A DNA stretch of 64,000 bases from Bacillota bacterium (GCA_023436115.1 JAEZKQ010000026.1:129023-193022), one strand, 5' to 3'; positions 4,492-20,769 are shown, counted from the first letter of the stretch. Notes: generated by a model from the sequence alone, not told the origin. A program made the numbers and translations.

Positions 4492-5085
4492 TTATATGTA
4501 TGCGTCATGAACATGCTTTAACACAGCAGCGAGAGAAAACCCCTGTTCTATTTTCCGTGATAAATACTCTTGAGCAATATGGAAGCAATCAAACAATCTT
4601 TTAGCCCGTATAACATCGGAATATACAATCCAGCACCCATTGAGCAAGCCGTGTTTACCTCTGTTCTTGATAAATCCCGTCACATCTGCGACCGGATATC
4701 CTAAGAAAAGTCCGATTTCATGAGGAAATCCTTGGGAGGCAGCCATTCGCAAACTCAGCCGCTCCAACATATCTTCAGATGAAAGCCATCTGGAGTACCC
4801 CATTTTTCCTAATATAAGAGCACGGTCAGCGCATCTTATATCCCTTAACAGCATGCTCTTGTTATAAATATAAAGCCATTGCCGATTTTCATTTTGGTAC
4901 AAAACACGAATAAACAAGCCTCTTGTCTGCCCATAAACGTTAAATTGTTTTATCTGGGTCGAGATGTCGCCATTTTTTGAATTGAATATAAGCAGGGATG
5001 CTGTCTTCAAACCAAGGAGAGTCGGAGCCGCATGCCATGCCAATAACGAGTCCAATAAAGAAATTGATTCTTTCTCTTTCATCAA
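4492..5085 (-). CDS. DUF3793-family protein (function unknown)
   Basis: The N-terminal LLAWHAAPTLLGLKTASLL pattern and overall size resemble the clostridial DUF3793 family. This is recognised from memory, not searched. Confidence 0.55.
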   Translation of the reverse strand: MMKEKESISLLDSLLAWHAAPTLLGLKTASLLIFNSKNGDISTQIKQFNVYGQTRGLFIRVLYQNENRQWLYIYNKSMLLRDIRCADRALILGKMGYSRWLSSEDMLERLSLRMAASQGFPHEIGLFLGYPVADVTGFIKNRGKHGLLNGCWIVYSDVIRAKRLFDCFHIAQEYLSRKIEQGFSLAAVLKHVHDAYI

Positions 5086-5178
5086 AGTTTATTATCTGCA
5101 CATTAATAAAAGCATAGTCATTTTTAATTTATCATTTGGGGCATAATAATAGGAAATATAGATGAAAGGAACACCATT

Positions 5179-5394
5179 ATGAAACGTAAGTTTGAAAGTC
5201 CAAGAGAAGATATTGATGATGATTACACGTCGCTTGATATTGCATCTAGCACCGAATGCACTGGTATGGTGCCATCTCCGCCGCTGGATGAAGCCGAAGT
5301 GGAAGGTTATGCCGATATATACTCAGTTCCCCAAAAGCAAGCAGAAAATGCGCGCGAAATGAAAGTGCGAGGCGGGAAACAAGTGCAAAAATGA
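5179..5394 (+). CDS. Small acidic hypothetical protein (71 aa)
   Basis: An AAGGAA RBS lies about 8 nt upstream and its own hairpin terminator follows 27 nt downstream. No recognisable domain. Confidence 0.45.
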   Translation: MKRKFESPREDIDDDYTSLDIASSTECTGMVPSPPLDEAEVEGYADIYSVPQKQAENAREMKVRGGKQVQK

Positions 5395-5420
5395 TATAAT
5401 AATATTCAATATTTGTATAC

Positions 5421-5447
5421 GGCCGGTTTATCAATCGGCCCTTTTTT
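5421..5447 (+). terminator. Intrinsic terminator
   Basis: GGCCG-loop-CGGCC hairpin followed by CTTTTTT. Confidence 0.6.
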
Positions 5448-5574
5448 CATCTAATTACTTTAAATAAAAAAATCGTTAATCAATGTATATTCGAAAATCC
5501 TTTTTAATGATATAATATAGAATAATTGATTATACGCATTTTTTGCGAGGATTCTTATTTGGAGGAACATATAT

Positions 5575-5859
5575 ATGTCTGATAAAGTCGTTCCCAAAAA
5601 TGTGTTGGAAGAACTGGTGTCATATAAGCTAGATGAGCTCATAAAAATAACAAACTGTTGCAATTGCGACCGCTGCCGAGCTGATGTTTTAGCTATGGCT
5701 CTAAACAAACTCCCTTCTCGGTATGTCGTCAGCTCAAGCGGCGATATCTATACACGTTTTCAGGCTTTGAGCCCTCAAATGCAGGCAAATATCACAACAG
5801 TTCTCATTAACGCCATTGAAGTCGTAAAAAAAGCGCCCCGTCATGATTTAAATAAATAA
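5575..5859 (+). CDS. ComFB-family (late competence development) protein
   Basis: Contains the CCNCDRCRADVLAMALNKLPSRYVV cysteine motif typical of ComFB. RBS is GGAGGAA. Confidence 0.7.
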   Translation: MSDKVVPKNVLEELVSYKLDELIKITNCCNCDRCRADVLAMALNKLPSRYVVSSSGDIYTRFQALSPQMQANITTVLINAIEVVKKAPRHDLNK

Positions 5860-6104
5860 CGATCTATATTAAAAGCAAAGTAAAAGTGATACTTTCTTTA
5901 GCACCACTTTTTTGTTTTGCGAAATCGGCAAGTTATCAAGCTTCTTGCAGTTACAACCCAAATACTATGATTATACTAATCCTATTGTTCCAAACCCTAG
6001 GGGCTTCAGTCACAAAACTGGCACAAATCAAGGCTTCTCATGTTTTGACATTAGTAATTCGTTTTGTATTTACAGTACCTATATATCACATTATATAAAA
6101 TAAC

Positions 6105-6131
6105 AAATATCCCCGGTTAACCGGGATATTT
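6105..6131. terminator. Perfect palindromic hairpin, probable terminator
   Basis: AAATATCCCCGG-TTAA-CCGGGATATTT. On the minus strand it is followed by GTTATTTTAT, so it may close the tail-gene transcript. On the plus strand no clean U-run follows. Confidence 0.45.
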
Positions 6132-6429
6132 CAAACATACGGCTACGCCTATTTCTCTCATAATACCGGCTTAAAATAAGCTTTGTTTCGAACTGATTGA
6201 AACATAACCTCAAATCTATAATACTTCAATGCTATCTACCAACATTCTTACCGATGTTTTAAATTGCTCAATGCCCAAATTCTCCCCCAACAATGATGCA
6301 AAGTATAGTCTATTTCTTTAAATAAAATGTCGTATCTTTTGAATAAATTTTACATATAATATTTGCTAGACTATTAAATCTGCTTTGGAATGTTTTAACC
6401 TTATTGCTGCTCTTTTCTCTGTAATAAGT

Positions 6430-6648
6430 CTATTTAGTAAAAACAGCTGATAAAACTATTTCTTCGCGTGATCCCGCTATTGGTTCCCCCGCATCAAGTC
6501 TGCGTTTTATTTCAGCATCAACGACATTGTCAATTGCGATACGACAGCGTTCATGGACAACATTTTCGATCCATTCTTGAATAGAAAGCACTTCAGTAGA
6601 AAGGGCTTTAGTCTCCACATCCGATAATTCAAAGCCAAAGTGAGCCAT
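6430..6648 (-). CDS. Small phage-module protein (72 aa), last gene of the cluster
   Basis: Good RBS (AAGGAG). Soluble and acidic with no predicted TM segment, so not a holin. It directly follows the C1q-like fibre gene. Confidence 0.5.
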   Translation of the reverse strand: MAHFGFELSDVETKALSTEVLSIQEWIENVVHERCRIAIDNVVDAEIKRRLDAGEPIAGSREEIVLSAVFTK

Positions 6649-6660
6649 ACTTACACTCCT

Positions 6661-7713
6661 TTACCCTAAAAATACTGCCTGAAAAAACAAACAATGATCG
6701 GGATAGTCAGCATTATAACCAGGCGCAGATATTGTTCTGCTGGTAAATAACCATACCTCAAGATAATCCCCTTCCACTAACGGTAACGTAATAACAAATT
6801 CACTCATGGGTATATCTACAGGAGTCATAGCTCCCCCGGAAAACTGCGTTACAATGCCATTTTTTCTTATTCCAATAGCATAACGTTCACCGTTACCGGG
6901 TGTGAACCAATACCCTCCGCACGTAATTAAATAACGACCTGAAACAGGAGCCGTAAATCTATCGGTTGATGCATTCCAGCAATTTGCCGCATCGCTAACT
7001 TTTATAGTGAATCCTCTCACCTTTTGCCACGATGTAACGGAAGTGAACTGTGCCCCTAATTTAACCCATGTAAAAATATTACCTTGGACTCTTAATCTAC
7101 CGTTTACAACAACATCATTTTCAAATTGAACTTTGTCTTTAAATTTTGATTTCAAAAAAACCTGAAGCTCATTAGCATCAGCTTTGCCGCCAATACCCAC
7201 ACCATCATTACCTGGTTTAAAATAAATGGCTCCGAATCGTAAACTTGAATTAATCCTTTCATCAGTAATATCTTCAGAAACTATTTGGACGGCATTTGCA
7301 TTTACGTAGATCTTTGCTAAAACAATTTCAAACACACCGTTATGATTATAAAGAGCAGGTTCTATGGGCGATTTTGATTTTAATCCCTTTTTAATACAAG
7401 CGTAGACACTGCCTTTTTCAGGATCTTTTCGAACCACAACAAGGTCAATTCGTGACAGAGTATCGGCTGCCTCAAGCTGAAGTGTCAAAAGTCCTGTACC
7501 ATTATCACTGACTTTGAATAGATAGCCATCTATTAGTACGACTCCAAAACCAATTTTGATACTCAATCCCTCTCCCGGAGAAACCCGAAGGTTATCACCA
7601 AGCTCCCATATGCCCGATGACACAAATTGGCGGCAATATTCAGCAATTCCATCCGCTCCATAACGTTTGTCAGTCATGGCCCCTTTGAAATACCTTCCTT
7701 CAATTAGCGCCAT
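6661..7713 (-). CDS. Tail fibre / receptor-binding protein paralogue 3 (shared N-terminal anchor domain, C1q/TNF-like C-terminal head)
   Basis: The N-terminus MALIEGRYFKGAMTDKRYGADGIAEYCRQF...DGYLFKV...RID..V.RKD...ITDER aligns by eye with the 8067-9194 and 11277-11882 products. The C-terminus FTAPVSGRYLITCGG...IRKNG...LVEGDYLEVWL...LFFQAVFLG fits a C1q-type jelly-roll signature. RBS is AGGAGG. Confidence 0.65.
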   Translation of the reverse strand: MALIEGRYFKGAMTDKRYGADGIAEYCRQFVSSGIWELGDNLRVSPGEGLSIKIGFGVVLIDGYLFKVSDNGTGLLTLQLEAADTLSRIDLVVVRKDPEKGSVYACIKKGLKSKSPIEPALYNHNGVFEIVLAKIYVNANAVQIVSEDITDERINSSLRFGAIYFKPGNDGVGIGGKADANELQVFLKSKFKDKVQFENDVVVNGRLRVQGNIFTWVKLGAQFTSVTSWQKVRGFTIKVSDAANCWNASTDRFTAPVSGRYLITCGGYWFTPGNGERYAIGIRKNGIVTQFSGGAMTPVDIPMSEFVITLPLVEGDYLEVWLFTSRTISAPGYNADYPDHCLFFQAVFLG

Positions 7714-7722
7714 GTGAACCTC

Positions 7723-8055
7723 CTAACAATCTTGTGCGCCTTCAAAATCCTTAACATATTCTTTTATATATGAATACAACAAGGCGACAATATTTTCCCC
7801 TTTCGATTGCATAATATCGGGAGCAAAGTGATCATCATACACCGAATCATCTTTATATGGTATATTATTATATAAGTCGATTCTCTTTTTTTCAGAATCA
7901 ATTGGGCTGCCGCCGGAAAAGCGTACCGTAGAATTGATATACGGCATAACTTCAATATGTATTTCCTTTTTTATAATATCAATTTCATATTTTGCAATTC
8001 GCCAATATTCCATATCAAATCCATACTGAGATCTGATAGTCTGCTTTAATGCCAT
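7723..8055 (-). CDS. Small phage-module protein (about 110 aa) following fibre paralogue 2
   Basis: The ORF track starts at 8067, but GGAGG lies 5 nt upstream of the ATG at 8055 (MALKQTIRSQ...). No recognisable domain and no TM segment. Confidence 0.5.
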   Translation of the reverse strand: MALKQTIRSQYGFDMEYWRIAKYEIDIIKKEIHIEVMPYINSTVRFSGGSPIDSEKKRIDLYNNIPYKDDSVYDDHFAPDIMQSKGENIVALLYSYIKEYVKDFEGAQDC

Positions 8056-8066
8056 AAAAACCTCCA

Positions 8067-9194
8067 TTAGTGTACAAGATCGTACCAGTTACCCCACCCG
8101 CCATTAGCTTGTCTTCTCCATCTTGGCAAGCCCGCTATGTTGAGTGGAAACGCAATAATGATATTCCAAATGTCATTATGTCTTAACCAAATAAAGTAGT
8201 ACCAATCTCCCGACGGTGCGTTGGGACAACCGGAACCCATATAAAAACCCGTATTTTTATTTGCCAAGCAATCTTGTCCTGATATATTGATACAAGATCC
8301 TTGTCCAAAAGATGGGGAGTTTGCTATTCCCGAACTGTTTGCATAACCTGCGCTCCCTGAACTATTTGAATAATTCGAGCTGTTGGCATAGTTAACCGAA
8401 AAATTTGATGGATTATACACATACATATTCGTACCATCATTTCCACCCCACAGCCAGGATGGCTGACCGCCCTGACCGGACCAATTCCAGTTTTTATTAC
8501 ATGATGCCGATGTTTTTATAAACGATGATTCGTGATATCCATCAAGCTGATCCGCATCCAGCCCGCTGCCAGCACCATCATTTCCTTTGTGCCATATGTT
8601 TCTTATCGATATGCCGCTGTCTTTAAGTTTGTTGCCGTCTGTGCTGTTAAAAACAGATATATTATCGAGGGCAGATATAGATGGGCCTGCAAGACCTATT
8701 TTACTGCTGACAATGCCGCACATTGCTGTATCAGTTCGTTCATCGGTTATATAGGCCATTACGATTTCTGCCGCACCGGCCGGAACAAGTATCCTTGCCA
8801 AGCTGATTTCATAAACCGCATCCGATCTCTCTAAAGCAGGGGGGACTGGGCTTGAAGCCGCAGCACCTTTTTTTATATTGATATCAATATTTTTACTCAC
8901 ACTATCTTTTCGTAAAACAATGCGGTCAATACGTGGTAAATTTTCAGCGTTATCTAATTTAAGTGTTAGTGTATTTACACCATCTTCAGTTACTTTAAAT
9001 AAGTATCCGTCTACCATTGCGGCACCGTAACCCACACTGACATACATTGCGCCATACGGTTTAACCTCAAGATTTGATCCAAACTCCCATACACCTGATG
9101 ATAGGAAGCGTCGGCAATACTCAGCAAGCCCATCCGCCTCGTATCGTTTATCTGTCATGGACCCTTTATAATATCTTCCTTCCAAGAACGCCAT
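8067..9194 (-). CDS. Tail fibre / receptor-binding protein paralogue 2 (shared N-terminal anchor, distinct C-terminal head)
   Basis: It has the same N-terminal domain as 6661-7713. It then carries GNDGAGSGLDADQLDGYHESSF, a fibre collar-type motif, followed by an Asn/Ser/Gly-rich low-complexity segment and a Trp/Cys-rich C-terminal domain. Confidence 0.6.
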   Translation of the reverse strand: MAFLEGRYYKGSMTDKRYEADGLAEYCRRFLSSGVWEFGSNLEVKPYGAMYVSVGYGAAMVDGYLFKVTEDGVNTLTLKLDNAENLPRIDRIVLRKDSVSKNIDINIKKGAAASSPVPPALERSDAVYEISLARILVPAGAAEIVMAYITDERTDTAMCGIVSSKIGLAGPSISALDNISVFNSTDGNKLKDSGISIRNIWHKGNDGAGSGLDADQLDGYHESSFIKTSASCNKNWNWSGQGGQPSWLWGGNDGTNMYVYNPSNFSVNYANSSNYSNSSGSAGYANSSGIANSPSFGQGSCINISGQDCLANKNTGFYMGSGCPNAPSGDWYYFIWLRHNDIWNIIIAFPLNIAGLPRWRRQANGGWGNWYDLVH

Positions 9195-9618
9195 AGATAA
9201 ACCCCTTCATATTACTTACATTTTTTCATAATAGTGCTTACCAACTATAGATATCTTTATGCTATTCTTGTCCATACAAAAACAGCTAGATACGGCAGCA
9301 TATTATTGTATACCTGATTACCGCCCCCGAGTTTATATAGTCCGCATCTTCCAGATTCAGGTTGCTTAAGGAAGTATCATTGACGATAGAACGAAGCAAA
9401 CCTGAGCGCCGGAGTGATCTGTTTTGGGCCTGACGGCAAAGGCCTTGGTATTATTTTTTTTACTCTCTGGACTACCAACTGGAATATGGAACTCATTTTG
9501 CCCAGAATATTTGGCAAACCTTAGGCTATAGACCAATATGCCGGGCGGTGGTTCGGAGTCAATAGACAATCCGTATTATGGATATCTTATCAATATCTTC
9601 TAAGTGCTATTAATGTTT

Positions 9619-11277
9619 CTAGACTTGTTTGACTATATCTCTAAGCTGCTCAATTGCCTGTCTCAGCTTAACCCGGTTCACACCGCCGCCTATCACTGAC
9701 GGGTTTATCCATGCCACACTGATATCAGAATTGCTATTGCTCGTGTCCCATCCGTTTATGCGGTCAATTACGCCCTGTAATGCGGTTTGCATTTCTGTGA
9801 TGAATACCGCATTACCAATCTTTGAGGCTCCAGCATGACACGCTGTCCATGAGACCGCATCCAGCCCATAAGCCGCCCTTAAGTTCCCTATGGCTACTTG
9901 CAGGCTGCTTATATGTACCGCCTTAATCTTCATGCCCGGAATTGTGAGATCACCATCTTCGGGTACAAATGCCAGCACATTAAATGAACGGATTACATCA
10001 GAAGAATAGAGATACGAATCATACATCCTGGACTTGATGTTTACAGTTCCGGCTGTCAATTCAGACAACGGCTGATAGACGACTTTCTGACCTGATGCCA
10101 AATTGGCATTCGCTCCGCACGAGAAACCCGATACCGTTGCCGTCGTCTTCTCGGAGCCATCATTTAAGCACAGAATATGTTTTGGCCCGTCATTCGTTGT
10201 CCCTGCTGCAAGTAAAATATGCGGTCGCTTATTGTATACTTTGCTCCCAGCAGCAGGAAAGCTGATTTCAGGTGAATTTGGTGTAGTATTCAGCGTTACC
10301 ACAGTGGTGAAAGAAGACCATGGGCTCCTTATTCCATAGGCATCATAGCTGCGAACGCGGAATCGGCGTTGTATGCCCTGAGGCCACCCGCTTGTGTTCA
10401 CATCAACAAATGTAGCAGCGCCGGAAGCAGAGTTTCCCACAATCGTCTCGTTTTGGTCTGTCGCCGCTTCAAAGCCCACAAGATTATTGTCGGGATCGCC
10501 GGTGTTAGCAAACGATACACGGATGATATCGCCGGGAATATAAGATGTTTTAGGTACCCCCGGACTTGTCGGCTGATTGGGAATACGGTTCTTAGTCACA
10601 GCATTGGACCAGCCAGACCAAGGATTATCACCGCGCTGCGTCACCGCCATAACATAAAAATCAACGATCGTACCTCTTCCCCATCCTGATACATCGGGCG
10701 TCCAGCTTGTCGTATTACCCACATCAGCTAAATTCTCACCGCCATAATTGATCCTGTAATAGACACGATAAGTCTGTATGGCGTTATTGACACCCACTGA
10801 AGCCGGCCCCCACGAAAATGTCACTCTGTTTTCGTATGGATTGGGAGATAGCGAAGGACTATATGGCGCACCGGCACGTGTCCAGTAAAGCGACCATCCA
10901 AAACCGAATTCCGTACAATAATTTCTGTTTGTCCAAATACAAGACTCCGTACCGGAAGTGCTCGTCTGTATATACAGATTCCATCCTCCTGAAAGCGTTG
11001 TTCCCACATCAAACGCAATAACAAATGAGCCACTATACGTTTGACTGGAAGACCATGCCTGCGAATTTTTTATTATTCCGCTGCCCAGTAATACACCATC
11101 GCTCCGATAAATATATAATGTTCTGTTGTTTGAGGAGCTTGAGCCATTACTCGTCCCACTGCCTAATTTGACAGACCAGTCAACACGTGCAGTCACAGCG
11201 TTGCCCGAACGACCAACTTCATAAACATTGACCGTCATCGTCGTATTTGACGTTGTGTTGCTTCTAAATGTTGGCAT
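9619..11277 (-). CDS. Tail/baseplate peripheral protein with fibronectin type III-like repeats
   Basis: 552 aa. Repeated about 90-aa segments show FN3-like patterns (e.g. RVTFSWGPA...YRVYYR...W..W). The start overlaps the upstream stop as TAATG. Confidence 0.55.
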   Translation of the reverse strand: MPTFRSNTTSNTTMTVNVYEVGRSGNAVTARVDWSVKLGSGTSNGSSSSNNRTLYIYRSDGVLLGSGIIKNSQAWSSSQTYSGSFVIAFDVGTTLSGGWNLYIQTSTSGTESCIWTNRNYCTEFGFGWSLYWTRAGAPYSPSLSPNPYENRVTFSWGPASVGVNNAIQTYRVYYRINYGGENLADVGNTTSWTPDVSGWGRGTIVDFYVMAVTQRGDNPWSGWSNAVTKNRIPNQPTSPGVPKTSYIPGDIIRVSFANTGDPDNNLVGFEAATDQNETIVGNSASGAATFVDVNTSGWPQGIQRRFRVRSYDAYGIRSPWSSFTTVVTLNTTPNSPEISFPAAGSKVYNKRPHILLAAGTTNDGPKHILCLNDGSEKTTATVSGFSCGANANLASGQKVVYQPLSELTAGTVNIKSRMYDSYLYSSDVIRSFNVLAFVPEDGDLTIPGMKIKAVHISSLQVAIGNLRAAYGLDAVSWTACHAGASKIGNAVFITEMQTALQGVIDRINGWDTSNSNSDISVAWINPSVIGGGVNRVKLRQAIEQLRDIVKQV

Positions 11278-11882
11278 TATTGATACACCGCCCCAATCAC
11301 CTTGTTGGCTGTCACTTCGTTAAATGTCGGACTGTCTGAGGTCTTAACTCCCTGATCAATATGATTCCTCACTGAAATAGGCTCAATTAAGCCACACACG
11401 CTGTTGTCTGTCCTCTCATCAATGACCTTATCAACCGCAATGCTCTGTACACCTGGTTCAACTCTTATTTTTGCGAGCGACAGTTCATAGATGTTGCCTT
11501 CCCGTGTCAATACCGGCGCAACCGGGTTTCCCGATGCTTCTCCGTTTTTCACCAAAAGGTTAATTGAGCGTCCGGCAACACTCTTGTCTAGCCGCAAAAC
11601 AACCCTGTCGATACGACTTAATGACTGGTGTGGCTCAACGATAGCCATTGCTTTCAAACCACTCTCATCATCCCTCAGCCAATATCCGTAACCTTGCACA
11701 ACAGCGGCACCAAAATTCACATTGACAAACATGCCTGTTCCCGGTGCCGTTACAGCAAGATTTGTTCCCATAACGGGAACTCCATCCGTTAAAAATGTAC
11801 GGAAAAACTCCGCAAAATCGTCTGCCTGGTACTCTCGGTTATCATCTGCATAATCAAAAAAACGGCTCTCTTCCAATGCCAT
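11277..11882 (-). CDS. Fibre anchor-domain protein (paralogue 1; N-terminal domain only, 201 aa)
   Basis: MALEESRFFDYADDNREYQADDFAEFFRTFLTDGV...QGYGYWL...RIDRVVLRLD...VIDERTD aligns with the N-termini of the 375-aa and 350-aa proteins. It has TAATG overlaps with both neighbours. Confidence 0.6.
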   Translation of the reverse strand: MALEESRFFDYADDNREYQADDFAEFFRTFLTDGVPVMGTNLAVTAPGTGMFVNVNFGAAVVQGYGYWLRDDESGLKAMAIVEPHQSLSRIDRVVLRLDKSVAGRSINLLVKNGEASGNPVAPVLTREGNIYELSLAKIRVEPGVQSIAVDKVIDERTDNSVCGLIEPISVRNHIDQGVKTSDSPTFNEVTANKVIGAVYQ

Positions 11883-13015
11883 TATCGAACAACTCCTATC
11901 TTTCTAATTTCATCAAGCGCATTTTTGTTGCGCTTTCCAAACGTAGGTTTAATATCGGTTTTTCCCTTTTCGTATACTTCTTTCACTTCGGTTATCTGTA
12001 CATCAAGTTCAACCCCAGATTTTTGGCTCTGTATTGTTACATAATCCCCGAGTTCCCAGTCTTTCTGGTATGTAAACGGACCGGCCGTCACAACATCCCC
12101 CGTCAAGCCTCTAATTCGTGCTTTGTCCTTGAGCTTATACTTGCCTTCATAAAGCAGATCATTAATCATCTCAACACTACCACAATCCAGCCATGTTTCA
12201 CGTCTTTCAAAGCCTGTTCGTGTCACGTCATTTTCATAAACCGTATGTATTAAACGCCCTTCATTCTCTCCGGCACCGCCTGCATATCCTGTATTCAGCC
12301 ATTGATTGATATCCTCTGAATACTTTATTCCGGATACATTTCCCCAGGCAGGTGCGAAAATAACCGGAGAACCACCACCCGCCGTATGATCATTTCCCTC
12401 AATCACATCAAAAACAAAACACTCGTTTTCCAAGTCTAGTCTTATCTCGTATCCTATACCGGTTAGTTCGCCGATGTCCTTAAACACAGTACTGAGCGGC
12501 TCAAATCTGCTCTGCCATCTCAATCCCTGACCACGCATCCGATCGTCAGCTAGAGTCAGCCTTGGAAACACTCTGTCCGTATTATCCGGACTAACCATAT
12601 GTCGGTCTACGTAATGCTTAATCACACTCTCAGCCGGTTTGTCTGGTTCGTTTACTCCAGGAAAGCGGTCATAGCCAAAATATTGTGTATCCTCAAGCTG
12701 ACCGGGAACTGTCAGCCGCAACAGGCAAAGGCATTTGAGTTCCTTGCCTTTTGCAATCACTTCAGTACCATTGTTGTTTTCCTGCACCTCATAATAATCC
12801 ACAATGCCAGCTCTGCGTCTATCAAGAAATACAATGGATTCAGGAGTGAGCTTGTTTGCATCACGGTGGTTTAAATCAATGTGTATTTCAAAAGTACCAA
12901 CTTCCCAGAGTTTTCGTGTCCACTGAATGCTTGAAGCGTTGTCAATGTATGCAAGCGGTGTAAAGCTGGTGTCCATCACTCTCAATACCGCCACGATCAC
13001 ACACCTCCAAACCAC
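11882..13015 (-). CDS. Tail-associated (Tal-like / siphovirus Gp37-like) baseplate hub protein
   Basis: The position immediately after Dit and the size (about 365-377 aa) fit a Tal N-terminal-type protein. No lysin domain was recognised. The start is uncertain: GTG 13015, GTG 12994 or ATG 12976. Confidence 0.5.
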   Translation of the reverse strand: MVWRCVIVAVLRVMDTSFTPLAYIDNASSIQWTRKLWEVGTFEIHIDLNHRDANKLTPESIVFLDRRRAGIVDYYEVQENNNGTEVIAKGKELKCLCLLRLTVPGQLEDTQYFGYDRFPGVNEPDKPAESVIKHYVDRHMVSPDNTDRVFPRLTLADDRMRGQGLRWQSRFEPLSTVFKDIGELTGIGYEIRLDLENECFVFDVIEGNDHTAGGGSPVIFAPAWGNVSGIKYSEDINQWLNTGYAGGAGENEGRLIHTVYENDVTRTGFERRETWLDCGSVEMINDLLYEGKYKLKDKARIRGLTGDVVTAGPFTYQKDWELGDYVTIQSQKSGVELDVQITEVKEVYEKGKTDIKPTFGKRNKNALDEIRKIGVVR

Positions 13016-13866
13016 GGCGTAGTCGATATACTGATTAGAGATGTTTGACTGTCATCACCCGATAGATATTGAAGACGGTTCTCACCCGGATCCAGCATGA
13101 ATAATGTACTACTTAAATCAATATAACCTATCGCCGTTTCCACAATGCCGCCCGTACGTCTTATTGTCACTCTTGGATTGCCCGGTGTCGTATCAATGTG
13201 CAAGATGTCTCCCTCGTACAATTCACGCTTAACTCGAATGTATTCACCGGTACGGATTTTCAATATTTCCGGCTGCGATGATGGCCCGGATATTTCAATT
13301 TGCATAGCCGCCGGACTATCTCCACGGTTCCATATTGACGTTTTATACCCGCGCGCACCAAACCGGACCTGGCCAAGCCTTAACGGAAATCGCAAACCGC
13401 CGCCCAGATATGCCATACTCGCCCGTTCACTAATCATACCGCGCCAGTACGGATTAGGGCAGTAAAACACCAGTTGATCGCTTTTCAAATAATTAGCAAT
13501 ACGTGAACTTCCCTGCGGCCCGCGTTTCACCACCGCCGGTATCCACCATGTCCCAAAATCATTTGTATACTCAAGCCGACCCATATCTCCGTCCCTGTTG
13601 AGTACCGGGCTTAAAATTGAAATGAGCTTTAGCTTATTTTCATACATTTCTTTTCTCGTTGAGCCTTTGATATTGACAGTCAGCGTAATCTCTCTGGCAT
13701 CAATATAAAGGCCGTTAAATGAACTTCCGTCCAGCTGTGCCGGCTCCGATTTCATGATCTGTACATCTTCCGTCCCGATACCGCTGATTTTTTCCAAAAT
13801 AAAAGGCGGGGCTTTAGAAAACACCACCTCTTTACCTTTTGGGTTAATATACCTGACTCTTTGCAT
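12997..13866 (-). CDS. Distal tail protein (Dit; Sipho_tail family-like)
   Basis: 289 aa directly downstream of the tape measure gene. The N-terminal pattern resembles phage tail family proteins. RBS is GGAGGTGG. Confidence 0.6.
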   Translation of the reverse strand: MQRVRYINPKGKEVVFSKAPPFILEKISGIGTEDVQIMKSEPAQLDGSSFNGLYIDAREITLTVNIKGSTRKEMYENKLKLISILSPVLNRDGDMGRLEYTNDFGTWWIPAVVKRGPQGSSRIANYLKSDQLVFYCPNPYWRGMISERASMAYLGGGLRFPLRLGQVRFGARGYKTSIWNRGDSPAAMQIEISGPSSQPEILKIRTGEYIRVKRELYEGDILHIDTTPGNPRVTIRRTGGIVETAIGYIDLSSTLFMLDPGENRLQYLSGDDSQTSLISISTTPWFGGV

Positions 13867-13881
13867 TCATTCCACCTCCTG

Positions 13882-16800
13882 TCACATCTGCGAAATTTGT
13901 TCCAGCAGTCGTTCCAGCTCACGTCTTATCTCAGCCGGGCTTTGCGTGGTCTCAGTAAAGTAAAGATTCAGTGTAGGTCCCACATTCGTCACCGGGCCTG
14001 TCGGTGCAGGAGACTCTTGAGCTGTCGGGTAACCATGTACCGAATAATACTGTTCAGCCGCTGTTGTAGCGACATGTGCAAGCTCTTGTTGATAAGTCGT
14101 CAAGCTAGATGTCAGGCTGGCAAACCACGCTTCAATATCACCCACCCGGCTCATAAACCCGTCAACAAGCTGATCGCCCAACGTCTGCCCTGTCGCGTTG
14201 TACTCAGGTGCAAATTCCTTAAGCAGATTGATGATATCTGTCTGTCCACTTTGCATCAGCATCTTCTGCGCCTCAGCCCGCAGGTTCTGTTCTTTTTCCA
14301 ACTCTTCATAGTAAGCGTTATTAGCATCGATCTTATCCTGAAGCTTTTCCTGCTCGGTTTTTACCGTTTCATTCACAGCATCAATCTGTTTTTGCAAATC
14401 AGCTTTCAGAGCATCACGCTCCTTCTGAACAAGCCAGTCGTCTAGCTCCTTTTGCGATTTTACGATTTCTTCCTGTAGTTTTCTCCGGTTATAGACATCC
14501 TGCTCATAAAGCAGTTGCTGTTCCAGCATAGCGATCTTGCGGCGTTTTTTGGCTTCTTCCTCCGCATCACTTTCCTGCTTTGTGAGTTCATCCAGCGCAT
14601 CAATTTGGCGCTGTATCGCTGCTACCTGTTCATCGCCCCATGTCTGCCATGCATCGATAGAATCGTTGAGCGTCTTTTCTTCCATCTCACGCTGCGCTTC
14701 ATACCGTTCTTGCAATGCGGATACGATGGCGTCAGAAAGTCCGTTCAACCGATCAATATTCTGCTGTCTTATCGTCTGTTGAAGGTCATAAAGCTCCTTC
14801 TCCAGATCAATTCTATCCTGAACGCCTTCCTTATAAGACGCTATCATTTTCTTGAGTTGGGCTTCCTGCTCCGCCAGCGTCATCTGTCCATAATAAACTT
14901 TTAGGTCATATTCCTGACGCTCCAGCTCTCTTGCAGCCTCGTATCGCTCCTTTTCAAGATCACGCCTCGCTGTCGTTCCTTCTTTATAGGAGGCAATCAT
15001 CTTGTCCATAGCTGCAATCTCTTCACGCAGTGTCAGCTGATCCATGGCCTTTTGGTATTCAAGCTCTTCCTCGGCAAGCTGCTTTCTGAGCTCATATAGC
15101 TTTTCCGTCAGTTCACGCTTTTCATCAGTCGTCTTGGCATACTTGGCCAATATACGCTCAAGATTGGCGATCTCTTCTGCCGTTGTCACCTGACCCATCG
15201 CTTTATTATGCTCCAGCAGTTCTTTCTCACGTTCAAGCGCTTTGTTCTTTTTGGCGCCACCGCCGCCGCCCCCACCGCCGCCGGTTAATTTGGACCCAAA
15301 CGGGCTTTTGTTGTTAAACGTAACTTTTCCATCACTGGATACATTAGCTGACGGTATACTGTACATGGCTATCATCGCGTCAATAGCAGATTTGGTGACA
15401 TCATCAGCACCAGCTCTCAAGTTTTGCAACTGTGCAACCATAGAGGACGCATCCCCAGTGAATTCCACTCCTACAAATTGTCCGAGTGTTTGCAATAATG
15501 AGCTGTAATAATCCTCTTCGTCCGAAATGGCATCTGCAATCAACCCCGAATTACTCTCAATATCACTGGCAGATACTCCAAATTGCTCCGCAAGATAATT
15601 TAAAGCCTCAGTATATTGATCAGACGCGTCAGCACCTTGCTCAACAATACTTAAAGCAGACTTTGATTTCCCCAAGTCCCCCATAGATTTGCTGATATCG
15701 CCAATAGCTTTGGTGGCATTCTTTCCGCCGCTTGCCAAATCTTCAAAAACTGCATCTGCTTTTTTAATGTTTTGCGTTTCTCGCTTTGATGATTTACCAA
15801 CAACTTCGATCTTTTCTCTTGTTTCATCGAGTGCATTGTTAAGGTTAGTCTTTAAAACCTTTTTTAGACTTTCGCTAGCTGCATTCATCCCATCAACACT
15901 GTTAATGGCCGCCTCAAGCGCAGCTTCATAGTTCAATAAAGCTCCCGCCCCTCCCTCGTCGGCTGCAGCAGCGGCTTCTTCCAAATTACCGAACACATCA
16001 GAAATCGCAAACCCCGAAAGATCAAATCCTGAAAACAGTTCATTAATTTGTGCCTTTTTATCAGCTATCGATGTGGTGTTACTATCAATCGTTGTAATTG
16101 CATCTTGAAGTATCAACTGAAGCGACGTATTCATTTGAGCGCCGCTGGAATTCAGAGAATCAACTATACCAGAAAGCATATCTATCTCACCTAAGCCACT
16201 GCCTTCACCAGCAGCGAACATAGAAAGCAATTGTTCTCTTATGGCCTCTCCAGTTGGAAGATCGGCCTTTGAAACAACAGAATCTAGATTGGTATAAGCA
16301 TCAAAGACTTTTTGAGCTGCAGCTGCTGCCTCTTCAGCCGTACTTTCACCGTTAAATGCTTCATCCATCTTTAATTTCATGACTTGTTGAAGTGCTATTG
16401 GAACATCCTGACCACGGTTTCGTATTTTTAAAACCATCTGATTAAACAGATTATCTAAAGCAACCTGGCCTTCAGCTTTGGCATCTTCGATACCCGCCAT
16501 AGCCTTATCGAGATTTTCCTGCCAGACACTTATTGTATACTGCATATCTTCCATAGCCTGAGAATCTGGGGCAGCATCTTTATACTGATCACCAAAAACT
16601 ATGGTAGGATCTTCTATTCTGCTTTTCCAGTAATCTTGATCATTTTCAAAACCTTTTATTTTATTGACAGAATTATTGACAGTATTTTTCTCAGCGGCTT
16701 CATTTTCTCGCATTTTACTCAACATCAGTTGTTCCGATAATGCAAGCTGCTCTTTCATGGTATCAAGATTGCCTGCAAGCAGCCTTCCTTCTTCGTCAAT

Positions 16801-17736
16801 AGCTCCCACTGAAAAACCATATGTCTCTACCAATTCGGCGCGTATATTATTCATGCGTTGCATATCTTCAGCGGTCTTGATCACTTTCTGACTGAGCATA
16901 TCATATTCTGATACCAGACTGCCAGCACCCGTATTATTTTCCCTTAGCGAATCGATCTCCTTACGGTTGTCCTCAAGTTTCTTTTTGGCTTCGGCTTCCG
17001 CTTGTGCAATGGCGTTAACCACTGCCATAATCACAGTAAAAATTATACCGACAACACCCAGTGCTGTATTCAAAGTGGAGCCCATGACAGCACCTGCTTG
17101 CCCCGCCGCCTGAAAAGCGGGTATTAGGTTCAGCACCTGTGCCCCGATCGATAGTATCTGTTCAGTCACACCGCCGGTTGCTTTTCCTACGGTCGTCATC
17201 AATGATGTTATCGCAGTTAATGTCGCCTTCGAGCTTTCTGCTTTCTTTTTTGAATCATCGTTTGAATTTGATTCCGAAGTTGCATTCACCTTCGCTACTG
17301 CTACCTGCCCCTGCTCAGCTTTAAGCGCGCTGAGAGAGCTTCTTGCTGCATTTACCGAATCAGCAAGGGCAATATATTGCGCATCATTTACTTCTTCGCC
17401 AGCGCCCAATGAAGCCTTATACGCTTCAAGCTTGGTCTGAGCCTCCTCCAAAACAGCTGTCTGTCTTCGAATACTCTCTTCCAGCTTCACAAACTCACTA
17501 CTTAATTCATCAAGCGACATACCCTTATATTTGTTACTCATTTCCGCCGATGCGGCGCTCACTTGAGCTATTACACCTAATAGGGTATCTTTTGTAAGAT
17601 TCGCCCCCTGTTCCATAGCTGCGTGTATTGTTAAAAACGCTTGAGTAATCTGACGTGCAGCCGCTGTTGCCATTTGGACAACAGTGTCCAGTCCCGCAAC
17701 CTTTACATTTATAATTAAATCTACTTTTTCGCTCAT
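13882..17736 (-). CDS. Tail tape measure protein (1284 aa)
   Basis: Very long alpha-helical, coiled-coil-rich protein. It has hydrophobic segments (GVVGIIFTVIMAVVNAIA), a Gly9 linker and three 51-aa tandem repeats. It sits after the G/GT chaperone pair. Confidence 0.85.
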   Translation of the reverse strand: MSEKVDLIINVKVAGLDTVVQMATAAARQITQAFLTIHAAMEQGANLTKDTLLGVIAQVSAASAEMSNKYKGMSLDELSSEFVKLEESIRRQTAVLEEAQTKLEAYKASLGAGEEVNDAQYIALADSVNAARSSLSALKAEQGQVAVAKVNATSESNSNDDSKKKAESSKATLTAITSLMTTVGKATGGVTEQILSIGAQVLNLIPAFQAAGQAGAVMGSTLNTALGVVGIIFTVIMAVVNAIAQAEAEAKKKLEDNRKEIDSLRENNTGAGSLVSEYDMLSQKVIKTAEDMQRMNNIRAELVETYGFSVGAIDEEGRLLAGNLDTMKEQLALSEQLMLSKMRENEAAEKNTVNNSVNKIKGFENDQDYWKSRIEDPTIVFGDQYKDAAPDSQAMEDMQYTISVWQENLDKAMAGIEDAKAEGQVALDNLFNQMVLKIRNRGQDVPIALQQVMKLKMDEAFNGESTAEEAAAAAQKVFDAYTNLDSVVSKADLPTGEAIREQLLSMFAAGEGSGLGEIDMLSGIVDSLNSSGAQMNTSLQLILQDAITTIDSNTTSIADKKAQINELFSGFDLSGFAISDVFGNLEEAAAAADEGGAGALLNYEAALEAAINSVDGMNAASESLKKVLKTNLNNALDETREKIEVVGKSSKRETQNIKKADAVFEDLASGGKNATKAIGDISKSMGDLGKSKSALSIVEQGADASDQYTEALNYLAEQFGVSASDIESNSGLIADAISDEEDYYSSLLQTLGQFVGVEFTGDASSMVAQLQNLRAGADDVTKSAIDAMIAMYSIPSANVSSDGKVTFNNKSPFGSKLTGGGGGGGGGAKKNKALEREKELLEHNKAMGQVTTAEEIANLERILAKYAKTTDEKRELTEKLYELRKQLAEEELEYQKAMDQLTLREEIAAMDKMIASYKEGTTARRDLEKERYEAARELERQEYDLKVYYGQMTLAEQEAQLKKMIASYKEGVQDRIDLEKELYDLQQTIRQQNIDRLNGLSDAIVSALQERYEAQREMEEKTLNDSIDAWQTWGDEQVAAIQRQIDALDELTKQESDAEEEAKKRRKIAMLEQQLLYEQDVYNRRKLQEEIVKSQKELDDWLVQKERDALKADLQKQIDAVNETVKTEQEKLQDKIDANNAYYEELEKEQNLRAEAQKMLMQSGQTDIINLLKEFAPEYNATGQTLGDQLVDGFMSRVGDIEAWFASLTSSLTTYQQELAHVATTAAEQYYSVHGYPTAQESPAPTGPVTNVGPTLNLYFTETTQSPAEIRRELERLLEQISQM
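14758..15216 (-). repeat. Three tandem 153-nt (51-aa) repeats inside the tape measure gene
   Basis: The three units begin LEHNKAMGQVTTAEEIANLERILAKYAKTT..., LEYQKAMDQLTLREEIAAMDKMIASYKEGT... and YDLKVYYGQMTLAEQEAQLKKMIASYKEGV.... Coordinates were derived by counting codons from the start. Confidence 0.7.
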
Positions 17737-17889
17737 GTCCGGCCCTCCTTCATGAAAAAAAGCGGCACTAAGGTCGCTTTTTCTTAAAACCGGTATTTAT
17801 ATATCATTAACGGCAAACGCTTATTGTCCGCTGTTGCGCCGCCGATACAATTGAGGTCTCTGGTATTGTGATTGTTCCACCTGTGTTGC

Positions 17890-18491
17890 TTACCACTCAT
17901 CTGCAGAGACCTCTGTGGTCATTTCCTTCTTATCAAAGCTATGCATCTCATTATAAGCATCCAGCACGGTTAGAAACTCATCAAAATAATAGTCGTTTAA
18001 GAGAGCTGCTTTCCCAATACCGATGCTTTCGGCGATGGCGATCCATTTTTGGAGCCAGTAATCAGTGCCGGAAGCTTCGCCTTTATCAGTCCCGACACGG
18101 TTTCGAAAAAATCCGTCATATCATTCATCGCCCAGAATTCTTTAACGACATCACAGAATTCCTTTGGTGTGAGCGTGTTTTTTATAACGTCCTTATCAAC
18201 GTCGAGTATCAGTGATATGGTGCTCACCACATACTCGGGCGCAATCATGAAAAGACGCGTCAGAATACGAATCAGCGATTCCTCTGTCAGCGCCGTGAGC
18301 TCACTCATGATGTCCGAAATTTTCTTCCCGGGAAAAAGTTCGTTCACGATTGCACCTGGCAATTCTTCAAGCTCTCGCATTGCCGACAAGTATTTTCCGA
18401 CCGGGACTTTCTTGACTTCAATACCATGTACTACCCTTTCTTTAGGCAGTGTAATATTTGTGCTTTTACTCTTAAAATCAAATAAAGACAT
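17890..18491 (-). CDS. Predicted -1 frameshift product of the tail assembly chaperone (gpGT-like, about 200 aa)
   Basis: The slippery heptamer T TTT TTC sits in frame 0 (GAT TTT TTC; plus-strand 18105-18111). The -1 frame is open from there through the frame-0 stop for 71 codons, to TAA at 17890-17892. Confidence 0.55.
17997..18491 (-). CDS. Tail assembly chaperone (gpG-like, 164 aa)
   Basis: It lies between the major tail and tape measure genes. ATG at 18491 is preceded by GAGGAGGAA. The longer track ORF (to 18620) would overlap the major tail gene. Confidence 0.65.
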   Translation of the reverse strand: MSLFDFKSKSTNITLPKERVVHGIEVKKVPVGKYLSAMRELEELPGAIVNELFPGKKISDIMSELTALTEESLIRILTRLFMIAPEYVVSTISLILDVDKDVIKNTLTPKEFCDVVKEFWAMNDMTDFFETVSGLIKAKLPALITGSKNGSPSPKASVLGKQLS

Positions 18492-18537
18492 AGCTTCCTC
18501 CTCGATGGTTCTTTTCCGATAAATGGAGAAGAGGGTA

Positions 18538-19113
18538 TTAACCCTCTCCACCGCCGGTTTCAGCAATCTGATCAATTGTATCCAACCAGGTATACGTTTT
18601 GTCAGTGCTGTCCTTCTCAATTCTTACCGCCCCGTCCGCTGCACGTTGTGTCGAGCGGAATGTCAGGGTGTAAGCCGCGATTTCATTGGCTTCGCCTTTT
18701 GTCGCATGATCCACCTTAACAGACATTAGTCTCACGCAGTAATGCTTGAACATACGATACTGCCCGTCAGAACGAAGCGCTGCATACGCAAACGCAAATT
18801 CAGGGGCCACATCAGCGCTCTTAAATACATACGTTTTCTCTGTCTCGCTGTAAGTTCCGCCGGCCAGCTTCGCCTCAATTTCTAGCGGCAATCCCGCGAT
18901 CGTGAAAGTCAGGTCCTCGTACTGGTAGTCGGAACCCGAATCATACACGGCATCGTCAGCGTAAATGGTATATTCACTTCGGCTGACTTCTTTTGTGAGA
19001 TTCTGCGCACCTGAAAGCGGAATCATTGTACCGGTCGAATATACGGTCGTTGAGTTAACTGTAATCGGCCATGTACGTGCTGCGCAAAAGCCTTTCAATG
19101 CAATCTTGTCCAT
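18538..19113 (-). CDS. Major tail (tube) protein, phi13/TP901-1-like
   Basis: 191 aa, positioned upstream of the chaperone pair. The sequence pattern (..YADDAVYDS.....LTFTIAGLPLE...) resembles Firmicute siphovirus major tail proteins. Confidence 0.6.
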   Translation of the reverse strand: MDKIALKGFCAARTWPITVNSTTVYSTGTMIPLSGAQNLTKEVSRSEYTIYADDAVYDSGSDYQYEDLTFTIAGLPLEIEAKLAGGTYSETEKTYVFKSADVAPEFAFAYAALRSDGQYRMFKHYCVRLMSVKVDHATKGEANEIAAYTLTFRSTQRAADGAVRIEKDSTDKTYTWLDTIDQIAETGGGEG

Positions 19114-19128
19114 CTATTATTTTCCTTT

Positions 19129-19512
19129 CTATAATATGTCCTCGCCCCAAAACGAGAACTCAAAATAATAAACCGTTCTTCCTGATTCATCCACCGAAAG
19201 CTTGCACGGATGACTTCGTATGCGTCCGATGCCCCAACGCGTATCAGTCAAATGGATGATGTTTTCGTCCGGCCCGCTGTCAATATGAGTTGCCATCTGT
19301 GAAGCCAGCACATAAGCGTCCTCTGCATTCGCCGCCCTCACCTGAACCTTTATATAACGCGTGGCAGATCCGTCGGCAATCATGGATCCTTTATGTTCTG
19401 TCACGAAAAGGCCCACCGCTTGATCCGGAGTCCCGGGTAAAACGTCTTTGCCGATATTCTCATATCCTTTGCTTTCCAAATACGTTTTAAGGTCTTCCAA
19501 AAAAATGGCCAT
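19129..19512 (-). CDS. Tail terminator-like / head-tail joining protein (first gene of the module)
   Basis: 127 aa immediately upstream of the major tail gene, which is the canonical slot for the tail terminator. RBS is AAGGAG. The assignment rests on position and size only. Confidence 0.4.
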   Translation of the reverse strand: MAIFLEDLKTYLESKGYENIGKDVLPGTPDQAVGLFVTEHKGSMIADGSATRYIKVQVRAANAEDAYVLASQMATHIDSGPDENIIHLTDTRWGIGRIRSHPCKLSVDESGRTVYYFEFSFWGEDIL

Positions 19513-19619
19513 CTGCTTATCTCCTTACTTGGTGTTTAAAAAAATCATTTACTTTGTTATTGTCATTATCCTATGAAGAGTCGCTCAACTTCGCTCAATC
19601 TCTCTTTTCTAACGGAAAC

Positions 19620-19642
19620 AAAAAACCGCTCAAAACGAACGG
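19620..19642 (-). terminator. Intrinsic terminator (second of two downstream of the tRNA operon)
   Basis: Minus-strand RNA reads CCGUUC-GUUUU-GAGCGG followed by UUUUUU. Confidence 0.5.
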
Positions 19643-19724
19643 CTCATCTTTTTATATTTGGATCATAATTTATTACTCAACTCATAATCACTCAGTATTA
19701 AAAATTAATTGTATTTTTGGACAT

Positions 19725-19749
19725 AAAAAAACCGCCTTATCGGCGGTTT
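19725..19749 (-). terminator. Intrinsic terminator immediately after tRNA-Lys
   Basis: Minus strand: AAAACCGCC-GATAA-GGCGGTTTTTTT, starting directly after the encoded CCA end. Confidence 0.75.
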
Positions 19750-19825
19750 TGGTGGGCCACCAGGGGCTCGAACCCTGGACAACACGATTAAGAGTCGCGT
19801 ACTCTACCAACTGAGTTAGTGGCCC
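19750..19825 (-). tRNA. tRNA-Lys (anticodon CTT), CCA encoded
   Basis: Hand-folded cloverleaf: acceptor GGGCCAC/GTGGCCC, anticodon stem CGCGA/TCGTG, loop CTCTTAA, T-arm CAGGG-TTCGAGC-CCCTG. 76 nt. Confidence 0.85.
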
Positions 19826-19835
19826 TTATGAAAGG

Positions 19836-19909
19836 TGGAGCGGGTGATGGGAATCGAACCCACGCAACCAGCTTGGAAGGCTGGGGCTCTACCGTTGAGC
19901 TACACCCGC
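19836..19909 (-). tRNA. tRNA-Gly (anticodon TCC), CCA encoded
   Basis: Acceptor GCGGGTG/CACCCGC, anticodon stem CCAGC/GCTGG, loop CTTCCAA, T-loop TTCGATT. 74 nt. Confidence 0.85.
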
Positions 19910-19917
19910 GAAAATAG

Positions 19918-19992
19918 TGGAGCGGAAGACGGGATTCGAACCCGCGACTTCGACCTTGGCAAGGTCGCACTCTACCACTGAGTCACTCCCGC
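19918..19992 (-). tRNA. tRNA-Gly (anticodon GCC), CCA encoded
   Basis: Acceptor GCGGGAG/CTTCCGC, anticodon stem CGACC/GGTCG, loop TTGCCAA, T-loop TTCGAAT. 75 nt. Confidence 0.85.
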
Positions 19993-20004
19993 TCGGTGTT
20001 ACCT

Positions 20005-20089
20005 TGGTGCGGGCGAAGAGACTTGAACTCCCACGCCTAGCGGCACTAGATCCTAAGTCTAGCGCGTCTGCCAATTCCGCCACGCCCGC
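20005..20089 (-). tRNA. tRNA-Leu (anticodon TAG), long variable arm, CCA encoded
   Basis: Acceptor GCGGGCG/CGCCCGC, anticodon stem CTAGA/TCTAG, loop CTTAGGA, long extra arm, T-loop TTCAAGT. 85 nt. Confidence 0.85.
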
Positions 20090-20133
20090 TGGTATTGCAT
20101 CCAAAACGGCCCCCCGTTTTTGGGCACTTTGGT

Positions 20134-20759: not shown

Positions 20760-20769
20760 GAACTCTCCC

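Follow-up and report, generated by a model that had tools for sequence, protein, structure and literature searches.

Shoulder-anchored receptor-binding proteins (RBPs) are the specificity module in many Gram-positive phages. In phages p2, phiLC3, Q33 and OE33PA, Dit, the distal tail protein, has an arm-and-hand loop that is clamped by the RBP shoulder trimer (PMC9692632; PMC13232314); in phiLC3, RBP residues 6-22 contact Dit arm residues 158-173 (PMC9692632). These 'articulated' adhesion devices (PDB 2WZP, 1ZRU) are served by one RBP gene. The lactococcal 936 phage Phi4.2 has two RBPs that share a shoulder, both present in the virion and both involved in host binding (PMC6315561). In Phi4.2 and the other dual-RBP 936 phages, Phi4R15L and Phi4R16L, the RBP genes are adjacent and encode homologous shoulders with differing necks and heads (Hayes et al. 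2018, PMC6315561). Here we describe an array of three paralogous genes of this kind in a cluster of phage tail genes of a Bacillota bacterium. The cluster lies in a DNA stretch of 64,000 nucleotides (GCA_023436115.1 JAEZKQ010000026.1:129023-193022), which was analyzed as a whole and is called the window below. The three genes probably encode paralogous baseplate proteins of a p2/phiLC3-type ('articulated') siphovirus adhesion device, which is the best full explanation of our data.

The array shares with the Phi4.2 type the gene order Dit, Tal, RBPs, and with the articulated devices a shoulder RBP and a short, structural-only Tal. Unlike the Phi4.2 type, it has three shoulder genes instead of two, and these fall into two classes that are conserved across elements; one of the three proteins is shoulder-only and has a separate partner of 552 amino acids (aa). 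The heads are also different (one C1q-like, the other a fibre plus tip), the host is a gut-type member of the Clostridia, and head and lysis genes are missing. Phi4.2 was studied as particles, whereas the window array is known from its genes alone. The articulated devices differ from it not only in their single RBP gene but also in neck and head architectures, and the arm loop of their Dit has only a putative counterpart in the window, placed by alignment. The window array extends a known design, that of the dual shoulder-anchored RBPs of dairy phages, and is not a new kind of system.

Positions are counted in the whole window, and all genes of the tail cluster are on the minus strand. The array includes three anchor genes, the open reading frames (ORFs) that accompany them, and one junction:

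11277..11882, minus strand: type-1 anchor, 201 aa, with a shoulder (residues ~1-165) and a conserved C-terminal stub ending ...SPTFNEVTANKVIGAVYQ (AlphaFold2 (AF2), Foldseek, BFVD)
9619..11277, minus strand: partner protein of 552 aa for the type-1 anchor; its gene is TAATG-coupled, and it contains at least one weakly FN3-like region (residues 137-230)
9195..9618: non-coding junction of 424 bp with a drop in G+C, likely the seam at which the two distal cassettes join the core module
8067..9194, minus strand: type-2 anchor A, 375 aa, with a shoulder (1-165), a fibre-like neck containing a 60-aa module (221-280) and a tip (~300-375)
7723..8067, minus strand: 114-aa ORF, TAATG-coupled to the 375-aa gene, a candidate tip-specific assembly factor
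6661..7713, minus strand: type-2 anchor B, 350 aa, with a shoulder (1-158) and a C1q/TNF-like head (~220-350)
6430..6648, minus strand: 72-aa ORF after the 350-aa gene, the last of the cluster

An earlier note on this DNA had drawn attention to the ORFs at 11277-11882 (201 aa), 8067-9194 (375 aa) and 6661-7713 (350 aa), all of which are present on the minus strand, and had claimed that their products share an N-terminal domain and then diverge completely. Both parts of this claim were confirmed. In a MAFFT alignment, the three products match over residues 1 to ~160, where 45 columns are invariant, and share nothing alignable thereafter. The similarity is significant in every BLASTP pair: 38% identity over 168 aa for the 201- and 375-aa proteins (E 6e-36), 35% over 162 aa for the 201- and 350-aa proteins (E 1e-29), and 51% over 158 aa for the 375- and 350-aa proteins (E 7e-56); none of these comparisons gave a significant match past about residue 165. 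When all window ORFs of 50 aa or more were searched with a profile hidden Markov model (HMM) of the shared domain, exactly three matched, the three paralogues; E-values with the anchor HMM were 1e-56 for the 375-aa protein and 8e-49 for the 350-aa protein.

The genes are closely packed. Stop and start codons overlap as TAATG at the Tal/201, 201/552 and 375/114 junctions, and the 350-aa and 72-aa genes are preceded by spacers of 9 and 12 nt with GGAGG-type ribosome-binding sites. Each long paralogue is followed by a small ORF of its own, as the note had stated (114 aa at 7723-8067; 72 aa at 6430-6648). The nucleotide identity of the two long paralogues, which had been put by eye at about three quarters, is in fact 59% over the first 500 nt. 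The accompanying view that the duplication is not recent was correct: the anchors of the 375- and 350-aa proteins are 52% identical to each other and up to 56% identical to type-2 anchors of other genomes. As the two are no closer than anchors from different genomes, recent in-situ duplication of a type-2 gene was rejected, and the third anchor gene either arose by duplication long ago or is a type-2 allele that was captured separately. The idea that the type-2 genes are alternated by an invertible or shufflon-type switch was also rejected, since both are complete, have the same orientation and are 59% identical at their 5' ends.

The shared domain of ~160 residues is the shoulder domain of lactococcal p2/1358/phiLC3-type RBPs. 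An AF2 model of the 201-aa protein, built on 69 homologues, had a predicted local distance difference test score (pLDDT) of 85.8, and a model of the 375-aa protein exceeded 90 for shoulder residues 25-160. The shoulder models consist of an N-terminal helix plus a beta-sandwich and superpose on solved RBP shoulders, with Foldseek probabilities of up to 1.0. Top PDB matches of the 201-aa model were 1358 RBP, p2 RBP, SPP1 gp22 and, weakly, TssK, and the independent 375-aa model retrieved the same proteins (1358 RBP, SPP1 gp22, p2 RBP and TssK), each of which has the RBP shoulder fold. The best of these, 1358 RBP (PDB 4L92, 4L9B) and SPP1 gp22 (PDB 2XC8), are yet only ~10-14% identical in sequence. 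Among the predicted viral structures in BFVD there were 65 matches with E<1e-3 (best 1e-19, template-modelling (TM) score up to 0.81), mostly named 'Receptor Binding Protein'.

Sequence searches gave the same identification. In BLASTP, the N-terminus of the 375-aa protein is 31% identical over 151 aa to the shoulder of the phiLC3 RBP, Orf343 (E 4e-16). By tblastn, the domain occurs once per record in 337-353 phage records, in proteins annotated as tail or minor tail proteins; these phages include those of Paenibacillus, Streptomyces, Microbacterium, Lactococcus (r1t, phiLC3, Q33), Clostridioides and others, and the RBPs of r1t, Q33 and 62503 are among the matches. Several PHROGs families of virion proteins match the domain with E-values from 1e-26 to 1e-51. 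Pfam had no match for the three paralogues or the small ORFs, even at E 10. The proposal that the shared N-terminus serves as a baseplate anchor is thus supported by the RBP shoulder fold, by homology to the phiLC3 RBP shoulder and by the Dit-Tal gene order.

We considered whether the three proteins act as BppU-like structural adaptors in the baseplate and do not bind receptors, with specificity residing elsewhere, e.g., in the 552-aa protein or in Dit/Tal. The 201-aa protein is headless, SPP1 gp22, a top structural match, is shoulder-like, stands alone and has no known receptor, and the matching PHROG families are labelled 'virion structural protein', 'head protein' or unknown, all of which would suit such a role. 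However, the closest characterized homologues (phiLC3, Q33, 1358, p2) are RBPs, Pfam BppU_N has no match, the 350-aa protein ends in a C1q/TNF-like knob, and the modules of the 375-aa protein are common to tail-fibre proteins (in Peptidase_S74, Phage_fiber_2 and collagen contexts). For the array as a whole, we regard this explanation as very unlikely.

Directly upstream of the 201-aa gene are the genes for the expected docking partners of an RBP shoulder:

12997..13866, minus strand: Dit (distal tail protein), 289 aa; residues ~156-170 (GGLRFPLRLGQVRFG) are a putative arm loop (Pfam SPP1_Dit, Sipho_tail)
11882..13015, minus strand: short Tal, 377 aa, structural domain only (Pfam Sipho_Gp37, E 7e-68, residues 11-361)

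Dit of the window and Dit of phiLC3 align colinearly (E 2e-11); an FPL motif occurs in both, and the gap comprises no more than 4 residues. In this alignment, the arm loop of phiLC3 Dit, residues 158-173 (NKLKFPLSIKTDFAFA), corresponds to window residues 156-170 (GGLRFPLRLGQVRFG), and the putative loop is known from the alignment only. The aligned arm segment, GGxxFPLxF...VxFG, is among the most conserved columns of the Dit family. Tal is homologous to the 385-aa Tal of phiLC3 (E 6e-9). The gene set thus contains two of the three elements by which an 'articulated' adhesion device is recognized (PMC13232314) and is consistent with the third, the Dit arm. By analogy with the phages in which it is established, the shoulders in the window cluster may dock onto this arm.

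The anchors fall into two classes that are conserved in sequence comparisons, type 1 (the 201-aa protein) and type 2 (the 375- and 350-aa proteins). In a neighbour-joining tree covering related loci L001-L009 and L086, as well as in pairwise identities, anchors encoded in first position, including the 201-aa protein, separate from those in second position, including the 375- and 350-aa proteins. Judged from these sequences, the two anchor genes are not interchangeable in the window's lineage (L001-L009, L086, L091). Among 84 related loci from genomes and metagenomes, 72 have one anchor gene and 12 have two, and three were found only in the window; when the count is restricted to 54 genome loci with enough flanking sequence, two anchor genes occur in 7 and three in none. 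A second, independent dual-anchor arrangement is present in L033, L039, L040 and L045. Five single-anchor proteins of 296 aa (L051, L053, L059, L063, L067) have a second partial shoulder (model positions 16-91) at residues 180-256, which suggests an internal partial duplication of the domain.

The note had described the 201-aa protein as essentially anchor only and TAATG-coupled to a 552-aa FN3 protein. The coupling was found as stated. The rest needs refinement: the protein consists of the shoulder plus a conserved, fibre-like stub, and the similarity behind the FN3 label is weak (E 0.039 for Pfam fn3; E 0.01 for neogenin FN3 in PDB, at residues 137-230). Homologues of the 201-aa protein number 34 and are 197-210 aa long. 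In these, the stub (..QGVKTsdSPTF..V..TAN.ViGAVYQ) has a mean top-residue frequency of 0.85, compared with 0.76 for the shoulder. By this conservation the 201-aa protein represents an architecture of its own and not a truncation. Wherever downstream sequence was available, an anchor-only gene is followed by a homologue of the 552-aa protein of ~550 aa, and such homologues were found solely beside anchor-only genes (L001-L005, L091); the 552-aa protein has no match in PHROGs or in the phage collection. Because of this strict co-occurrence and the conservation of the stub, the 201-aa protein is probably an adaptor that carries the 552-aa protein; it is not an RBP in its own right. It resembles SPP1 gp22 in being nearly a stand-alone shoulder, and differs in having the conserved stub and an obligate neighbour gene.

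Other relatives instead encode a type-1 anchor fused to a C-terminus of 300-368 aa, followed by a small protein containing a dockerin or CBM96 domain. The dockerin-type protein, of 117-127 aa, lies between the two anchor genes at L006:11045-11413, L007:11098-11451 and L008:11111-11494, and its L006 copy is of type I (Pfam Dockerin_1, E 2e-14). Dockerins are unusual in the adhesion modules of phage tails, and the presence of one here hints at attachment of the cohesin type.

The C-termini of the anchors are exchangeable. A survey of homologous loci for cassette swapping, which the note had recommended, showed that 88 anchor proteins of 181-773 aa carry 22 unrelated C-terminal families, with both window heads being singletons. 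The same modules occur on other N-termini, once together with the same small downstream ORF, and the claim of unrelated heads on a common anchor was therefore supported. The head of the 375-aa protein has 321 homologues, and the anchor is absent from 118 of the best 120. What these homologues mainly share is the 60-residue module (SASCNKNWNWSGQGGQPSWLWGG..NMYVYNPSNFSVNYA), which occurs in Peptidase_S74, Phage_fiber_2, collagen and other fibre proteins. The distal tip (~300-375) recurs on a different N-terminus in protein P0121 of locus L085, where a 125-aa homologue of the 114-aa ORF (39%, E 1e-26) follows. Tip and small ORF seem to move together, because both recur jointly in L085.

For the head of the 350-aa protein, an exhaustive HMMER search found 452 homologues at E<=1e-3, and a word-indexed homologue search found none. 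The proteins that carry these 452 homologues are Phage Tail Collar, DUF859 or giant repeat proteins, and among the 150 best the anchor is present only in the head's own orthologue. In phmmer, the head matches P0253 (E 1e-13), P0263 (7e-12) and P0258 (1e-12), which score 34.2, 62.3 and 28.0 bits, respectively, against Pfam C1q, i.e., above its gathering threshold of 23.7 (3 of 10 scanned homologues were above it). Against BclA_C, P0263 reaches 41.0 bits, above the 38-bit threshold, and P0250 reaches 25.3 bits, below it. Membership of the head in the C1q/BclA_C group is transitive, via these homologues, and there is no direct Pfam match, so we call the head C1q-like. The 72-aa ORF has a homologue in Limnohabitans phage DC33 (46%, E 2e-9) after an 848-aa protein; the C-terminus of the latter has a weak match to the C1q-like head. 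By their occurrence on other N-termini, both heads are mobile modules.

Base composition changes along the array. G+C is 0.44-0.50 in the tail core and the 201- and 552-aa genes, 0.39 in the seam and 0.33-0.43 in the distal cassettes, and relatives do not have the 424-bp gap. Because of their lower G+C and their position beyond the seam, the two distal cassettes were probably added to the core by recombination.

A second assembly (L088) has an identical architecture, at 99.6% identity. Of 55 differences between it and the window, 20 are in the 350-aa gene and 11 in the 424-bp seam, with none in the tape measure gene. This corresponds to 19 differences per kb in the 350-aa gene (6661-7713 versus L088:12189-13241) and 0-3 per kb in the other tail genes. 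Codon changes in the 350-aa gene are 10 synonymous and 9 non-synonymous. Diversifying selection, or a diversity-generating retroelement acting on the 350-aa head, was rejected, as the 10:9 ratio fits an exchanged allele or heterogeneity of the assemblies or metagenome-assembled genomes (MAGs). Downstream of the cluster, a 130-bp stretch (6110-6239) is present in the window and absent from L088; it begins at a terminator-like hairpin, TCCCGGTTAACCGGG (6126-6111).

The remainder of the cluster consists of tail genes and begins beside a tRNA cluster:

19750..20089, minus strand: four tRNA genes (Leu, Gly, Gly, Lys) that bound the inserted tail cluster on its upstream side (ARAGORN, Rfam)
19750-19728 and 19645-19623: terminator-like hairpins after the tRNA cluster (terminator scan)
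19129..19512, minus strand: tail terminator, first gene of the cluster (Pfam Phage_tail_terminator_6, E 8e-9)
18538..19113, minus strand: major tail (tube) protein (weak Pfam Phage_TTP_1; 64-74% identity to tube genes of relatives)
17997..18620, minus strand: tail assembly chaperone, true start probably near 18491 (position between tube and tape measure)
13882..17736, minus strand: tape measure protein, 1284 aa, intact (full-length alignment to L006, 52% over 1317 columns)

The chaperone is 50-84% identical to orthologues of 157-167 aa in L004-L008. The gene order is terminator, tube, chaperone, tape measure, Dit, Tal and the RBP array, which ends at 6430, and all 12 ORFs over 13 kb are intact, including that of the 1284-aa tape measure. 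About two-thirds along, the tape measure has an unbroken run of nine glycines (…LTGGGGGGGGGAKK…), and its C-terminal third is the part best conserved in relatives. In a relative, L086:752-2600, a 100-aa piece of the tape measure N-terminus is duplicated ahead of the tape measure gene and lies between paralogous ORFs of 176 and 257 aa, the latter with a lipoprotein-like N-terminus. Both flanks of the window cluster are housekeeping, with the four tRNA and glycolysis genes upstream and ComFB, DUF3793 and H+-pyrophosphatase downstream. Elsewhere in the window, two T-box leaders on the minus strand, at 1973-2215 and 49594-49829, score 118.5 and 105.8 bits, above the Rfam gathering threshold; the former lies upstream of a leuA-like gene (345-1862).

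No homologues of head, packaging or connector genes were found in the window. The note had pictured a particle whose target range is broadened by its multiple specificities. A virion is not the right picture here, because the cluster is tail-only, with head, packaging, lysis, regulator and att sequences all missing from the window; a headless, tailocin-like tail particle or a silent remnant takes its place. The related suggestion that one particle displays several of the paralogues has a precedent in Phi4.2 (PMC6315561), but the three proteins belong to two anchor classes and are not equivalent.

Capsid-less chromosomal clusters of non-contractile tail genes are known as F-type tailocins, such as monocin of Listeria (PMC11830787) and efagin of Enterococcus (bioRxiv 10.64898/2025.12.13.693970). 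These have their own regulators and lysis genes and have been shown to kill. The window contains the corresponding gene set, a non-contractile tail without capsid or packaging genes; it contains neither regulators nor a lysis cassette of its own. Such genes are present in several relatives. L001/L002/L003:1-15500, L091, and L006 and L008:1-14600 encode regulators, tail proteins, RBPs, an endolysin and a holin-like protein, and no head genes were seen in them, with only ~2-4 kb upstream of the tail genes being visible. Their regulators are XRE, DUF6291 and DUF1492 proteins in one group, and Mor-like and NusG-like proteins in the other. We regard L001-L003, L091, L006 and L008 as candidate F-type tailocins of Christensenellaceae and other Bacillota MAGs. 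In true phages of the same family, L093 and L096, terminase, portal, capsid and connector genes lie ahead of the tail terminator orthologue, and the headless state is therefore derived.

These observations raise the possibility that the window encodes an active F-type (non-contractile) tailocin whose spectrum is widened by the three modules, with release and regulation provided in trans. The tail-only, intact gene set, the derived headless state and the resemblance of the L001/L091 and L006/L008 layouts to monocin and efagin loci (PMC11830787; bioRxiv 10.64898/2025.12.13.693970) agree with it. On the other hand, there are no lysis genes or regulators in the 64 kb, and the headless state of the relatives was judged from the short upstream sequence mentioned above; we find this rather unlikely. 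It is also unlikely, in our estimate, that the window together with L001/L091, L006/L008 and L086 represents an undescribed F-type tailocin family of gut Clostridia and Christensenellales with two docking classes, a type-1 adaptor for a large accessory protein and at least one type-2 RBP, so that a single headless particle or a particle population would have several specificities. If this is true, the window would hold its richest array, with three anchors, and regulation and lysis would act in trans.

Returning to the articulated adhesion device, the three proteins might work together as follows. The trimer-forming shoulder of each would, by homology, clamp the arm-and-hand loop of the Dit hexamer. 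The type-1 protein, as the canonical first gene product after Tal, would act as the adaptor for the translationally coupled 552-aa protein. The 375-aa protein would display a fibre whose distal tip depends on the 114-aa protein or carries it, and the 350-aa protein would display a C1q/TNF-like trimeric knob, followed in the cluster by the 72-aa protein. Heads and their small partner genes would recombine as mobile cassettes onto different N-termini. If assembled, the two type-2 trimers may compete for the same docking position, which would yield tail tips of mixed or alternative specificities alongside the type-1/552-aa complex. The cluster itself would be a head-less and lysis-less insertion by tRNA-Lys, either a domesticated tail particle or a prophage remnant that has not yet eroded.

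Several points weigh against this interpretation. Foldseek E-values against PDB are weak (6e-3; TM 0.45), and the head of the 375-aa protein was not resolved in the AF2 model. Sequence and profile searches of PDB with each paralogue, the anchor alignment and Dit returned only chance matches, namely TCR alpha, TIM and huntingtin. In hhalign, the Dit family showed no relation to p2 ORF15 (the p2 Dit), from which it is too distant, and the comparison of Dit arms is therefore made with phiLC3 only. Trimerisation, binding to the Dit arm and the 201/552 complex are features that we infer, and two or three kinds of trimer would have to be fitted to six Dit arms per ring. Finally, tblastn with the Mor-like, NusG-like and DUF1492 regulators of relatives gave no match in the window, and no sigma-70-like promoter was found in the stretch that leads from the terminator pair behind tRNA-Lys to the first tail gene.

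The last two observations also bear on whether the cluster is a silent prophage or tailocin remnant, its array a by-product of recombination and none of the three paralogues made today. Other losses point in the same direction. In the window, tblastn found no lysins, holin-like proteins or head-tail connectors like those of relatives, the ORFs of 5050-6700 and 19400-20800 include no lysis or regulator candidates, and the two housekeeping flanks share no att-like direct or inverted repeats of 11 bp or longer. A sister species, L102, has the same synteny and tRNA cluster without the tail genes; five of six flanking housekeeping proteins have 83-89% amino acid identity, and DUF3793 has 40%. Its interval from ComFB to tRNA-Lys (L102:9470-11675, versus 5860-19750 in the window) is 2.2 kb and encodes an amidohydrolase and a 113-aa membrane protein, which resembles the holin-like protein encoded last in the L006-type clusters (51% identity, E 5e-31). 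Because of this holin-like leftover, the site appears to have hosted this element family, with the two species keeping different pieces, and it suggests differential decay of the element there.

Against a remnant stand the 12 intact ORFs over 13 kb, with overlapping stop/start codons and ribosome-binding sites kept, and the same architecture in the second assembly, though 99.6% identity says little about selection. Intact ORFs and coupling signals argue against long neutrality, while the sister-species leftover and the lack of regulators, lysis genes and a visible promoter argue for a stranded module. On balance, we consider silence of the cluster almost as probable as its opposite, but not quite.

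None of these findings overturns current understanding. As a natural array, the cluster reveals the exchangeable parts and the position of the seams, which is useful for swapping heads, in laboratory strains, on phage or tailocin scaffolds directed at gut anaerobes. The two anchor classes raise the structural question of whether they share one Dit arm or use two docking sites. A tail module stranded by tRNA-Lys, with a different leftover in the sister species, bears on how tailocins originate from, or decay out of, prophages.

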